64,000 nucleotides of DNA from Escherichia phage KKE7M. Position 1 is the stretch's first letter; each line of letters begins with the position of its first letter. Below, piece by piece: positions 55,971 to 58,669 of this stretch. A model generated the notes under the pieces. It worked only from the letters and a program-made list of their open reading frames with translations. It did no database searches and had not been told where the DNA came from. Location of the stretch: the sequence record PQ356295.1; one strand, given 5' to 3'. A program made the translations under genes and the position numbers.

Positions 55971-57704
55971 TTAGTCAACCTGGATGGTTCCCATAGTACG
56001 AAGAACCTCTACATCAACACGGTTGCGGATATCAGTGAATGTTTCATCACGTCCTTCTACTTGTGGTGTAATAACCTTACCATCCTTGAAGATAACTTGT
56101 AACTCATTGTCTTCATCCTGGATATCTTTAAAAGAAAGATTATCTACAAGAGAAAGATTACCATTGGTATCCTTAACAACCTTAATAAAACCTTTTGCAG
56201 AGCGTTTACCAGGATCAGTTTTAGGCTCCTTACTTACCAAAATTTCGTGTTCACCGATGATGCTACCTGTTGCTTTAACAGCAAAGCCAAAAGTATCTCG
56301 TGTATTGAACTGATAAGTATAACTACCAACACCAAATACAATATTGGAAGCTGCAAAACCTTTCTTCTTCAGTCGGCGTAAGATCTCGTGTTCTCGTTCA
56401 ACAGTAATAGAATCACCATAAATCATACCGATATGCTCATCAAGAACCTTGTAGCCTTTTCGGTTGATAGTACCACCAAACACTTCCCAAAGGATTTGAA
56501 TAGAACCTACTGCTTCACAATAAGGAATCTCATAAGTTTCATCAATACAGTCAGCAACACTACAATCCTGAAGAACATTGTAATACTTATTAACATCAGC
56601 CAAATGAACTACTTCAGTGGCTGTCGCAATACCATTATTTAAAAGATCTTCATAGTTGTCAAAAGATTCAACATTGTATCCTGCAACAACTTTAACCGGA
56701 TCTCCTGAATCTGGACGAATAACAAGACGACCATTTCGTGACATAATGGAATCTTTCAATTCTACCAGAATGCGAGTCAATACAGCCCAATAGTCATAAG
56801 AGTCTGCTACATATGAACAAAAACCTTCTGGAACAATTTCTTCGATATAACGACGAAGAAACTCTTTTTCTGCTACATAACGAAGCCCATCTACATCATC
56901 TTTAAGATGTGGGAAATGTTTCTTCAGATCTTCAACAATAGCTCCAATGTTAGTCGTTGCTACTGAATGTTCTGTTGCCGGAATCGAACCTGCAACAAAC
57001 TGATCATAATCAATACCATAATAGTCATGCACAGTTTCAATAGCCAGAATATTATCTGTTCCTGTGAACGATGCCAAGTGAGCGATACCACTCTTATAAC
57101 CATCTTCGATATTACTTAAACCACGTAGGCTAAAATCATGACACTGGAAGTTAACGTGATCAATATTATCACACGTTGCCATCGCATATGCCATAGCGAT
57201 ACGCTTATACTGAAAAGCTGCTGTGGCATTAGTCATTGTCTTCCAAGTTTCATCTGACAACAGTGTTTCCACATAGTTAGTTAACCAAAAGAATTTTTCT
57301 AAAGTATTATGCACAGTAAATACAGGAACACCAATAGGACACAAAACACCTTCTGGCAGAGATCGAACTTCCAGCGGAAGATAACCTAAATCGTGCAATT
57401 CTCCCCAACACTCAGCAGAAGGAGCAGAAGCACCTAATGCATTCTTAGACATACGATAAAATTTATTTACTGCTGCACTACGAGACATTTTAAAGAAGCC
57501 GTCCCACATAGTTACAAGAGCATCGGTTACTGCTCGACGAATACCTAAGACAATCACACCACGTGCTTCACGATCTGCATAGTGTGCAAAGTTTTTATCA
57601 TTACGAGGAGTTAAATTAGAGAAAATTAGTTTTGTATTTTGGTTGTACATCTGCTTGTGACCAGGTTTATACCAATCAGTAGCAAAAGGTGCAAAAATAT
57701 TCAT
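55971..57704 (-). CDS. nadV: Nicotinamide phosphoribosyltransferase-like enzyme (Nampt/NadV family)
   Basis: 577 aa; N-terminal FATDWYKPGHKQ parallels the Nampt TDSYKxTH signature; adjacent to a PRPP-synthetase-like gene. Confidence 0.75.
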   Translation of the reverse strand: MNIFAPFATDWYKPGHKQMYNQNTKLIFSNLTPRNDKNFAHYADREARGVIVLGIRRAVTDALVTMWDGFFKMSRSAAVNKFYRMSKNALGASAPSAECWGELHDLGYLPLEVRSLPEGVLCPIGVPVFTVHNTLEKFFWLTNYVETLLSDETWKTMTNATAAFQYKRIAMAYAMATCDNIDHVNFQCHDFSLRGLSNIEDGYKSGIAHLASFTGTDNILAIETVHDYYGIDYDQFVAGSIPATEHSVATTNIGAIVEDLKKHFPHLKDDVDGLRYVAEKEFLRRYIEEIVPEGFCSYVADSYDYWAVLTRILVELKDSIMSRNGRLVIRPDSGDPVKVVAGYNVESFDNYEDLLNNGIATATEVVHLADVNKYYNVLQDCSVADCIDETYEIPYCEAVGSIQILWEVFGGTINRKGYKVLDEHIGMIYGDSITVEREHEILRRLKKKGFAASNIVFGVGSYTYQFNTRDTFGFAVKATGSIIGEHEILVSKEPKTDPGKRSAKGFIKVVKDTNGNLSLVDNLSFKDIQDEDNELQVIFKDGKVITPQVEGRDETFTDIRNRVDVEVLRTMGTIQVD

Positions 57705-57775
57705 AGTTATGTCTCCTTGTTTGTTAGTGTGGGAGTATCTTACTAAGCATACTCCCTATTGTCAACACTTATTAT

Positions 57776-58669
57776 TTAAAAATTCCACACGTATGGAAAT
57801 ACAATTTGTTGTTGCAAATCTGACTGATTCTTAACAAGAACACCGGAATCTTCTTGGATGTTATCTTCCCACACATTAAGAGAATGAATGCAGTCAAAGT
57901 GCTCACTTAACTCTTTAAGACCTTTAGAAAAGATACCGTGTGTAACATATAACTCAATCTTACCTGCGTTACGAGCACGTAGCACTTTAGCCAACTCAAT
58001 AAAAGTTCTACCACCATCACAGATATCATCTACGATCATCAGGTTACGCTTATTGAAATCCTGTACAGAAATGTCTGTACGAACAATAGCACCTGTTGCG
58101 GTATCTCTAACCTTCTCTGCACAGAACACATCTAAAGACATTTTCTTAGATAATTTAAATATTTTCTTAAGAGCACCACCATCAGGGCTAACAAGAGCAA
58201 AATTCTCCATACGTAACTTCCACTTTAAAGTTTCGTAAGCAATCTCTTCTTGAGGTATTACACAGAGTCTGTCAAACACTGCTGGAGTAACATCACTGTG
58301 GGGATCAGCAACGATAACACGTGAGAAATTTAATGAGTTAATTATAGAAGCAAATGCTTTAACTCCGAATGCTTCTCCAGGCTCACACACTCTGTCTTGT
58401 CGTGCATACGGTACATACAGCATGAGTAAATCAACACAATATGGTTTATGATATAGCATATTGTCCAATGCATTCTTAGTCATAACCAAAGTCATCAAGT
58501 CTTTAGCAGATCTTACTTCTAAAGTGAGTAAGATTCTGTCTGTAGCATGATTGAAACCTGATAGATTCGTATCTAATTGAACATGTTGTTCTCCACCAGA
58601 GAATGTAAACACTTTAACGTCTACATCAGTAACATAACAGTCAACACCATGCAGAATACTAACTTTCAT
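57776..58669 (-). CDS. prs: Ribose-phosphate pyrophosphokinase-like enzyme (Prs family)
   Basis: 297 aa; PRPP-binding loop NLMIVDDICDGGRTF and VIVADPHSD motif; AAGGAG RBS. Confidence 0.7.
   Translation of the reverse strand: MKVSILHGVDCYVTDVDVKVFTFSGGEQHVQLDTNLSGFNHATDRILLTLEVRSAKDLMTLVMTKNALDNMLYHKPYCVDLLMLYVPYARQDRVCEPGEAFGVKAFASIINSLNFSRVIVADPHSDVTPAVFDRLCVIPQEEIAYETLKWKLRMENFALVSPDGGALKKIFKLSKKMSLDVFCAEKVRDTATGAIVRTDISVQDFNKRNLMIVDDICDGGRTFIELAKVLRARNAGKIELYVTHGIFSKGLKELSEHFDCIHSLNVWEDNIQEDSGVLVKNQSDLQQQIVFPYVWNF

Follow-up and report, generated by a model that had tools for sequence, protein, structure and literature searches.

A gene pair of a phi92-like phage is very probably a minimal NAD+ reconstitution (NARP1) module

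The window, a 64,000-nucleotide stretch of DNA from Escherichia phage KKE7M (PQ356295.1), belongs to a phi92-like phage (Justusliebigvirus) that infects E. coli. On its minus strand lie two open reading frames, one encoding a 297-amino-acid protein of the Prs family and the other, after a gap of 71 nt, a 577-amino-acid protein of the Nampt family (Table 1). An earlier note on this DNA had described a Nampt-like and a Prs-like gene side by side, and both frames lie exactly where it placed them. Each ATG is preceded, at a distance of 7-8 nt, by an AAGGAG Shine-Dalgarno sequence. We refer to the genes as adps and namat, after the functions predicted below.

About 40 nt upstream of the adps ATG, and preceded by an AT-rich tract, is a promoter-like site, TTGACT-17-TAGAGT. 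The sigma70-like promoter proposed earlier thus exists as a 9/12 match, but it is a weak one, as a consensus scan returned 24 sites in the 4.6 kb region against 15.8 +/- 4.2 expected. The site recurs unchanged in phi92 and in phage alia, but these phages are so close (about 99% identical there) that its conservation is uninformative. A different local element, TTGACW-N16-18-TAAGAT, is better supported: three copies are present where 0.19 would be expected, each of them on the minus strand and located at 55.5-57.8 kb, and none of 100 shuffled sequences contained at least three. One copy lies in the spacer ahead of namat. The spacer also holds an 8-bp inverted repeat, which is no intrinsic terminator because no T-run follows it. 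From the sigma70-like sites we infer that the pair would be transcribed early by host RNA polymerase.

Table 1. Features of the adps-namat locus, in coordinates of the window; functional names are predictions
Feature	Position	Strand	Basis
adps: predicted ADP-ribose diphosphokinase (ADPR-PP synthetase), PRPS-like fold	57776..58669	-	ORF, phrog_619, residue mapping, NCBIfam scores, AF2
Codon of Adps K186, catalytic beta-hairpin lysine	58112..58114	-	MAFFT alignment
Adps PP-loop DDICDGGRTF, residues 214-223	58001..58030	-	Alignment
namat: predicted nicotinamide ADP-ribose transferase, Nampt-like fold, long form	55971..57704	-	ORF, phrog_448, PDB and Foldseek matches
Selectivity-clamp loop (SCL) region NDKNFAHY, residues 35-42	57579..57602	-	Alignment to SPbetaL1, Bas63
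Namat insertion 1, about residues 253-282, part of predicted helical hairpin	56859..56948	-	Unaligned against SPbetaL1 Namat, AhFM11 Nampt
Namat insertion 2, about residues 343-399, predicted small alpha/beta module	56508..56678	-	Unaligned against SPbetaL1 Namat
Selectivity-clamp helix (SCH) motif GSYTYQFNTRD, residues 460-470	56295..56327	-	Regex and alignment
Promoter-like TTGACT-17-TAGAGT, upstream of adps	58709..58737	-	Consensus scan, 9/12 match
adps Shine-Dalgarno AAGGAG, 7 nt ahead of ATG at 58669	58677..58682	-	Read from sequence
adps-namat spacer, 71 nt	57705..57775	-	Consensus scan and sequence reading
TTGACA-17-TAAGAT, copy within spacer ahead of namat	57737-57765	-	Consensus scan
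8-bp inverted repeat GGGAGTAT-N10-ATACTCCC in spacer	57731-57756	-	Sequence reading
namat Shine-Dalgarno AAGGAG, in spacer	57713-57718	-	Read from sequence

Profile searches matched the 297-residue protein to TIGR01251 (3e-34) and phrog_619 (3.8e-91), and its AF2 model (pLDDT 93.9) has a two-domain PRPS-like fold, for which Foldseek returned human and E. coli PRPS (TM ~0.75, E ~1e-14). Its scores against Prs models are those of an Adps. On TIGR01251 and NF002320 it reaches 118 and 98 bits; validated Adps reach 98-139 and 74-101, and E. coli Prs, the one canonical Prs used as reference in these comparisons, reaches 423 and 533. The protein barely passes TIGR01251, a broad subfamily model (118.3 against a cutoff of 113), and falls 3- to about 10-fold short of the other canonical Prs models, equivalog or subfamily (for example, 97.9 bits against the NF002320 cutoff of 297, where E. 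coli Prs scores 532.6, and 97.4 where 296 are needed). An HMM built from seven Adps, with no phi92-like sequence among them, gave 269 bits for the 297-residue protein and 119 for E. coli Prs. Identity to validated Adps is 31-41%. BLASTP favored ICP1 Adps (160 bits) and Bas63 Adps (137) over E. coli Prs (72), but the Adps of Bacillus phages, at 82 and 71 bits, came no nearer than E. coli Prs. Because the raw BLAST score is ambiguous for these Bacillus-phage enzymes, we relied instead on residue signatures and calibrated HMM scores.

The signatures of the PP-loop, the hairpin and the truncation are published sequence rules (PMC13586617). Lysine 186 aligns with K185 of ICP1 and K162 of SPbetaL1, the hairpin lysine whose catalytic role is described in PMC13586617 and by Osterman et al.; it lies within EKVRDTATGAI and is invariant across 38 homologues. 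The hairpin pattern KxR(D/N)xx(T/S)(G/N/L), which ends in G in this protein, is found in 102 of the 120 nearest homologues. In the remodelled PP-loop (ICP1 C215-S220), DDICDG..S/T-F replaces the DD(M/I)IDTGGT of Prs. The loop here is identical to that of Bas63 Adps, DDICDGGRTF, where ICP1 has DDICDGAASF and E. coli Prs DDMIDTGGTL; this loop recurs in 73 of the same 120 homologues. The acceptor-groove residues are also kept, as R90, H124, D163, D214, D215 and D218 (ICP1 R87, H121, D161, D212, D213 and D216), and the catalytic, acceptor and PP-loop residues are all invariant across the 38 homologues.

The nearest validated Adps is that of the Vibrio phage ICP1 (41% identity, 160 bits), for which structures and kinetics are available (PMC13586617). 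Besides K185 and the groove residues, ICP1 C215 is retained, as is the adenine contact F18 (F23 here). The two enzymes differ in the PP-loop (GAAS in ICP1, GGRT here) and at a further adenine contact, F92, which is Cys95 in the 297-residue protein. That position is not family-wide, because it is also changed, to Met or Ser, in the validated Adps of Bas63 and SPbetaL1. Towards the C terminus, TIGR01251 is matched only up to position 253 of its 309, and in length the protein falls between E. coli Prs, which has 18 residues more, and ICP1 Adps, which has 17 fewer. The protein has a predicted C-terminal helix: the AF2 model shows this one helix, at 282-295, which blurs the published signature, loss of the PRPS alpha11-alpha12 filament module.

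The 577-residue protein matches Pfam NAPRTase (6e-38), NCBIfam NF006629 (2.4e-138) and phrog_448 (1.8e-188). NF006629 proved useless for telling Namat from Nampt, giving 468 bits for Bas63 Namat, 449 for AhFM11 Nampt and 462 for this protein. Among PDB sequences, it scores 398 bits with 9w5x/9w5w, the Namat of the Bacillus phage SPbetaL1 (PMC12774641), 342 with HdNadV and 173 with human NAMPT. The top Foldseek matches of its model are likewise Namat structures (E 2.4e-49), SPbetaL1 Namat being the best match in fold (TM 0.92 on target) as well as in sequence. Identity to validated Namat is 37-40%, with 37-38% for the SPbetaL1 enzyme and 40% (E 2e-136) for that of Bas63. In a HMMER alignment to 9w5x, the reference core of SPbetaL1 (D13, Y15, F189, R192, D215, the catalytic His, R306 and D308) is kept as D10, Y12, F191, R194, D217, H246, R330 and D332, residues that are again invariant across 38 homologues.

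The protein carries the exact published form of the SCH motif, which was defined for Namat in PMC12774641. Its adenine-stacking aromatics, Y462 and F466, occupy the positions of F392 and Y396 in the SPbetaL1 motif GSFTYQYNTRD; Bas63 has GSYTYQYMTRD. Of the 120 nearest homologues, 119 carry the motif, which the Nampt controls (HdNadV, Xcc Nampt and AhFM11 Nampt) all lack. The classical Nampt and NadV enzymes that we compared (Haemophilus ducreyi NadV, 9ke8; human NAMPT; the NARP2 Nampt of KVP40-type phages) share the fold and the catalytic histidine/arginine core and also pass NF006629, but they are non-aromatic at the two stacking positions (GAQTYQRNTRD, GMGGGLLQMVNRD). They also have no adjoining Adps and use PRPP to make NMN; in NARP2 phages, the Nampt is paired with an NMNAT. 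The second half of the clamp, the SCL, is expected to have Arg, Lys or Tyr as its third residue and to stack through its third or fourth residue. Here the third residue is Lys37 and the fourth Asn38, which is non-aromatic, followed by F39, H41 and Y42; K37, F39 and H41 are conserved within the subfamily. The counterparts are TSR in SPbetaL1, where the stacker is Arg40, and SDKW in Bas63. With Asn38 where Bas63 has Trp, the loop half of the clamp does not fully match the Bas63 model.

SPbetaL1 Namat has 491 residues and Nampt about 480-495, so that the 577-residue protein is indeed some 90 residues longer than usual, as had been pointed out before. Most of the roughly 86 extra residues form two ordered insertions of about 30 and 57, both missing from SPbetaL1 Namat. 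The model of the first has helices at 246-263 and 271-290 (block-mean pLDDT ~78-94), and Bas63 Namat has a shorter insertion at this position. The second (block-mean pLDDT 88-96) is not found in AhFM11 Nampt and is longer in Bas63. A Pfam search with both insertions gave chance-level matches only. Because Bas63 Namat is 593 residues long and has its insertions at the same places, the extra length is no anomaly.

Osterman et al. (bioRxiv 10.1101/2024.02.11.579819) define NARP1, NAD+ reconstitution pathway 1, operationally as an Adps-type Prs-family gene no more than ten genes away from a Namat homologue; here, adps adjoins namat on the same strand. We consider it very probable, from the sequence features described above, that the pair is the minimal two-gene NARP1 module of a phi92-like phage. 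The earlier note had left this reading beside classical NadV/PRPP salvage and held that sequence could not separate the two. The published rules (PMC12774641, PMC13586617) do separate them, and most of these rules hold for the two proteins: aligned with characterised Adps, Prs, Namat and Nampt, their diagnostic residues largely match Adps and Namat and differ from E. coli Prs and Nampt. NARP1 is thus supported by residue signatures, calibrated scores and the published catalogue, and classical salvage is unsupported.

The module would act after a host NADase defence of the SIR2, TIR or SEFIR type (SIR2-HerA, DSR1/2, type I Thoeris and others) has cleaved NAD+ to ADP-ribose and nicotinamide. Adps would then move the beta,gamma-diphosphate of ATP to C1'' of the distal ribose of ADP-ribose, yielding ADPR-PP and AMP, and Namat would exchange the pyrophosphate of ADPR-PP for nicotinamide, giving NAD+ directly, without an NMN intermediate or NMNAT. 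This chemistry and the resulting protection have been demonstrated for the homologues of Bas63, SPbetaL1, FADO, ICP1 and DyoEdafos; for the two proteins of the window, we infer enzymatic activities and anti-defence phenotype by analogy.

A close parallel to the pair as a whole is genes 79-80 of Bas63 (Escherichia phage JohannRWettstein), reported as NARP1 by Osterman et al. In both phages, adps followed by namat forms a two-gene operon in a virus of E. coli, Adps has about 295 residues with the same PP-loop and Namat is of the long form. The backbones are unrelated, Bas63 being an 87-kb Felixounavirus and the phage here a member of the Stephanstirmvirinae with about 148 kb, and the proteins share 36% (Adps) and 40% (Namat) identity, the fourth SCL residue being Trp in one Namat and Asn in the other. 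The Bas63 pair has been tested in vivo, whereas that of the phi92 lineage is known from sequence: Bas63 deleted for genes 79-80 loses its resistance to SIR2-HerA, which is in vivo proof for a long-form pair.

The pair is a standard copy of the described pathway and is already known. Both proteins are 98.8-99.3% identical to their phi92 and alia orthologues (Adps 99.0% to phi92 gp107, Namat 98.8% to alia), and Tables S1 and S2 of Osterman et al. include the 99% identical orthologues of phi92, JohannJBalmer, PaulScherrer and EmilieFrey. In Table S1, phi92 gp107 appears among the Adps/Prs homologues and is marked 'Namat within 10 genes: Yes'; Table S2 labels the orthologous Namat 'Adps-associated'. 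In the literature that we searched, no main text treats NARP1 together with phi92-type phages.

The components of NARP2, NARP3 and NARP1-AP are absent: NMNAT, NadR and PnuC were found neither in the neighbourhood nor in the annotation of the complete genome of alia (97.4% nucleotide identity over the pair); Pfam and PHROGs revealed no Macro (Adpp) or RyR (RyDEP) gene among the ten neighbouring ORFs; and no Macro-domain phosphatase is annotated in the alia genome. The sole candidate for an NMNAT, the nucleotidyltransferase alia gp038 (window 9939-10532), was rejected, as it has a weak PolyA_pol-head match and no cytidylyltransferase fold.

Classical salvage would make the 297-residue protein a true PRPP synthetase and the 577-residue protein a Nampt/NadV, with the resulting NMN adenylated by host NadD or NadR. 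The narrow pass on TIGR01251 and the pass on NF006629 agree with it, as does the annotation in every deposited genome, and NMN synthesis from PRPP has been seen in vitro with Namat enzymes, so that some classical activity may persist. Nevertheless, we regard it as extremely unlikely. The kinase misses the remaining canonical Prs models just as validated Adps do, and has the Adps-type PP-loop and hairpin; its SPbetaL1 homologue gave no product in a Prs-type assay, yet made ADPR-PP from ADPR. The transferase carries the adenine-stacking SCH motif that classical Nampt lacks, a phage NMNAT was not found in the searches above, and the NARP1 of Bas63 rebuilt NAD+ even when the host lacked pncC and nadR.

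Two further explanations retain NARP1 chemistry or enlarge it. The pair might belong to an extended or different pathway, with a NARP1-AP phosphatase acting on ADPR-1''-phosphate, a NARP2 arrangement (Nampt plus NMNAT) or a RyR-domain cADPR glycosidase as partner. Such extensions are known in 15% of NARP1 loci and in mycobacteriophages, and the opposite strand does carry a phosphoesterase gene at a distance of about 3 kb (61549-62100). However, its product is calcineurin-like, a metallophosphoesterase rather than a Macro protein, it belongs to a divergent transcription unit, with a putative RNA ligase adjoining it in relatives, and with no Macro or RyR match in the ten neighbouring ORFs and no NMNAT annotated in the alia genome, this is the least likely explanation of all. 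Slightly less remote, though still very improbable, is a mainly metabolic role, in which the same two reactions would recycle ADP-ribose and nicotinamide released by host NAD+ turnover or by a phage Sir2-like protein, a putative cleaver. Genomes of the phi92 type do encode such a protein (phi92 gp038, alia gp165), but its gene is more than 30 kb from the pair, and in Bas63 ADPR-PP was detected only for the wild-type phage in the presence of defence, with no excess of NAD+ when defence was lacking.

If the pair is an anti-defence NARP1 module, as we believe, the practical value of recognizing it lies in annotation, since all deposited phi92-type genomes call the two genes 'ribose-phosphate pyrophosphokinase' and 'nicotinamide phosphoribosyltransferase', names that hide this function. 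It also bears on host range in phage therapy: phi92-type phages should resist hosts that carry SIR2-HerA, DSR or type I Thoeris, but should stay sensitive to aRES because the Adpp phosphatase is missing. The PP-loop DDICDGG, the hairpin KxRDxxTG and calibrated NCBIfam scores together offer a quick sequence test for NARP1 against classical Prs and Nampt.

Finally, the long-form pair differs from the short SPbetaL1 and ICP1 enzymes by several additions, namely the two Namat insertions, a longer clamp loop with Asn for Trp and the C-terminal helix of Adps. It is conceivable, if improbable, that these confer a property without counterpart in the short enzymes, and that the pair acts together with the phage Sir2-like protein; candidate properties include altered oligomeric or Adps-Namat assembly, regulation, or a wider range of acceptors such as phosphorylated ADPR derivatives.

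Both adjacent ORFs described by the earlier note were recovered exactly by ORF listing, and their assignment to the Prs and Nampt families is secure by Pfam, NCBIfam and PHROGs matches. For the shorter protein the hits are TIGR01251 (3e-34) and phrog_619 ('ribose-phosphate pyrophosphokinase', 3.8e-91); for the longer they are NAPRTase in Pfam (6e-38), NF006629 in NCBIfam (2.4e-138) and phrog_448 ('nicotinamide phosphoribosyl transferase', 1.8e-188). The same two annotations were carried by genes 79-80 of phage JohannRWettstein (Bas63), in which the NARP1 pathway of NAD+ reconstitution was discovered (Osterman et al., bioRxiv 10.1101/2024.02.11.579819). 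Loss of these genes abolished the escape of Bas63 from SIR2-HerA, and ADPR-PP was seen only when wild-type phage met the defence. Purified 'Prs' of SPbetaL1 proved to be an ADP-ribose diphosphokinase (Adps): it converts ADPR and ATP to ADPR-PP, and its Prs-type control yielded no product. The SPbetaL1 'Nampt' proved to be a nicotinamide ADPR transferase (Namat) with a preference for ADPR-PP over PRPP (same source). The view that sequence alone cannot separate Prs and Nampt from these enzymes is now out of date, because two structural papers supply sequence rules for Adps (PMC13586617) and Namat (PMC12774641).

Features of the region (window positions unless another record is named)
Feature	Position	Strand	Remark
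adps ORF	57776-58669	minus	297 aa
namat ORF	55971-57704	minus	577 aa
9/12 sigma70-like match	58737-58709		behind AT-rich tract
TTGACW-N16-18-TAAGAT	55528-55557, 55950-55978, 57737-57765	minus	precedes namat and two small downstream ORFs
8-bp inverted repeat	57731-57756	minus	adps-namat spacer
Small ORFs	55678-55899, 55231-55497	minus	between namat and tRNA array; conserved
tRNA array	52360-55223	minus	15 genes
HNH endonuclease ORF	54055-54435		between tRNA-Ser and tRNA-Lys
'Hypothetical tRNA' of phi92	about 56960-57110		phi92 49736-49886
197-aa protein	9939-10532	plus	'nucleotidyltransferase' in relatives
Calcineurin-like phosphoesterase	61549-62100	plus	divergent early unit
Sir2-like gene, outside window	phi92 NC_023693 12318-13130; alia NC_052655 101319-102131

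By the published rules (PMC13586617), an Adps is recognised by the catalytic lysine of its beta-hairpin (ICP1 K185), a PP-loop remodelled at C215-S220, the conservation of its acceptor residues and a missing alpha11-alpha12 module at the C-terminus. The window kinase was aligned with E. coli K-12 Prs, with the validated Adps of Bas63, ICP1, SPbetaL1 and FADO, and with three more Adps that a published table lists for phages. The adenine contact (F23; ICP1 F18), the acceptor residues (R90, H124, D163, D214, D215 and D218; ICP1 R87, H121, D161, D212, D213 and D216) and the catalytic lysine (K186; ICP1 K185, SPbetaL1 K162) are all in place. The PP-loop, DDICDGGRTF, is the same in Bas63 and reads DDMIDTGGTL in E. 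coli Prs, whose hairpin also differs from that of Adps. These residues are invariant across 38 homologues; ICP1 F92 is replaced by Cys here, at a position that also differs between validated Adps. The predicted model (AF2, pLDDT 93.9) has the PRPS fold and ends in a single C-terminal helix. Against TIGR01251 and NF002320, respectively, E. coli Prs scored 422.7 and 532.6 bits, the Adps of Bas63 138.5 and 100.8, of ICP1 98.3 and 80.2, and of SPbetaL1 106 and 74, and the window protein 118.3 and 97.9. With an HMM built from seven Adps, a training set free of phi92-like sequences, the window protein scored 268.8 bits versus 119.4 for E. coli Prs.

The transferase carries an exact match to the Namat selectivity-clamp motif, GSYTYQFNTRD, at residues 460-470, in which Y462 and F466 occupy the positions of F392 and Y396, the residues that stack on adenine in SPbetaL1. 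In the database, 119 of the 120 closest homologues share the motif. Such aromatic stackers are missing from the control Nampts, where the region reads GAQTYQRNTRD in HdNadV, GGALLQKVDRD in Xcc Nampt and GMGGGLLQMVNRD in the Nampt of a T4-like Aeromonas phage that has no Adps neighbour. Core residues D10, Y12, F191, R194, D217, H246, R330 and D332 are the counterparts of the SPbetaL1 catalytic set and are invariant within the subfamily. Among solved structures in the PDB, SPbetaL1 Namat (9w5x/9w5w) scored 398 bits by sequence and 2.4e-49 by Foldseek, followed by H. ducreyi NadV (342 bits, 1e-45) and human NAMPT (173 bits, about 3e-38). In the clamp loop, the second half of the selectivity clamp, the third residue is Lys (Lys37), as in Bas63, but the next is Asn rather than the Trp of Bas63.

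NARP1, proposed earlier as one possible identity, is supported by the Adps and Namat signatures in these alignments. Judged on sequence, the pair is very probably a minimal NARP1 module, and one already catalogued. In the supplementary tables that accompany the NARP1 discovery, the proteins of phi92, JohannJBalmer, PaulScherrer and EmilieFrey are entered as Adps/Prs homologues that have a Namat next to them and as 'Adps-associated' Namat. The window Adps is 99.0% identical to that of phi92 and 99.3% to that of alia, and the Namat 98.8% to that of alia. We found no reported experiment on a phi92-type pair in the literature searched, so the assignment depends on residue signatures and on homology with the enzymes of Bas63 and ICP1 (31-41% identity). 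By analogy with the family, when a SIR2-, TIR- or SEFIR-type defence cleaves NAD+, Adps would convert ADP-ribose and ATP to ADPR-PP, and Namat would couple nicotinamide to it, regenerating NAD+.

Among phages of the phi92 group (Justusliebigvirus, Stephanstirmvirinae), 55 records are 97-99% identical to this region at the nucleotide level, including those of phi92 and of the BASEL phages JohannJBalmer, EmilieFrey and PaulScherrer. The ten neighbouring ORFs scanned contained neither a Macro domain, which would mark the NARP1-AP variant with its phosphatase Adpp, nor a RyR-type domain. Because the phage lacks Adpp, and NARP1 cannot use the product of aRES-type defence, the phage is predicted to stay sensitive to that defence. 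The complete genome surveyed, that of phage alia (97.4% nucleotide-identical over the gene pair), contains no NMNAT (NARP2) and no NadR/PnuC (NARP3). Its 'nucleotidyltransferase' was rejected as an NMNAT, having just a weak PolyA_pol-head match. The window counterpart adjoins HNH endonuclease and DNA polymerase genes; since its sole match is a weak one to the PolyA_pol head domain (E 0.0017), it is possibly a CCA-adding enzyme or one of the Pol-beta type, in a phage with 15 tRNA genes. The only other NAD-related gene in alia, distant from the pair, encodes a Sir2-like protein (NAD-dependent deacetylase fold), which coexists with NARP1 in phi92-type genomes. The calcineurin-like phosphoesterase (phrog_547, 4.5e-55; Pfam Metallophos_2 weak) has an orthologue adjoining a putative RNA ligase in alia, which suggests an RNA-repair pair and not an NAD function.

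The extra length of the transferase was confirmed: compared with SPbetaL1 Namat (491 aa), it has insertions at about residues 253-282 and 343-399, six more residues in the clamp loop and an added C-terminal helix. In the AF2 model (pLDDT 89.9), the first insertion is part of a helical hairpin and the second a small alpha/beta module, both modelled with good confidence; neither matched a known Pfam domain. Because the founding Bas63 Namat (593 aa) has insertions at the same two sites, and almost all of the 120 closest homologues span 555-596 aa, this length is normal for the branch.

The two genes are 71 nt apart, each with an AAGGAG ribosome-binding site 7-8 nt 5' of its ATG, and a divergent intergenic region lies upstream. 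A sigma70-like promoter before the pair, as earlier suggested, does have a 9/12 consensus match, but such matches are frequent locally (24 seen versus 15.8 +/- 4.2 expected), leaving it weakly supported. By sequence statistics the TTGACW-N16-18-TAAGAT element is the more convincing local signal, with three copies, one in the adps-namat spacer, between 55.5 and 57.8 kb versus 0.19 expected, and at least three in 0 of 100 shuffles. The element probably represents a type of early phage promoter used by host RNA polymerase. The inverted repeat GGGAGTAT-N10-ATACTCCC overlaps the spacer and -10 of this promoter-like site, is not followed by a T-run, and has the same sequence in phi92 and alia; it might serve in RNA processing or stability, or as an operator. 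The two small ORFs (73 aa, two CxxC pairs, phrog_37033; 88 aa, phrog_15056), each with its own TTGAC..TAAGAT site, are, by position, candidate genes for additional anti-defence or accessory functions.

The tRNA genes lie directly downstream of the pair. The free-standing HNH endonuclease ORF among them (phrog_4234, 4.6e-25) shares 21 nt with the tRNA-Lys gene; alia has just a 171-nt spacer in its place, and the ORF therefore looks like a homing-endonuclease insertion. The 'hypothetical tRNA' that the phi92 record places inside namat is probably an annotation artefact, because ARAGORN finds no tRNA at the corresponding window position. P0096 (867 aa) and the Shigella phage Ag3 entry (Osterman Table S1) are apparent Adps-Namat fusions, the Ag3 sequence starting with Adps and continuing as Namat; these could be natural fusions or frameshift or annotation artefacts. 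Finally, four records named 'Campylobacter phage' (MG065639, MG065645, MG065656 and MG065689; host C. jejuni) show 97.6-97.8% identity with this region, and probably reflect a wrong host assignment or contamination.
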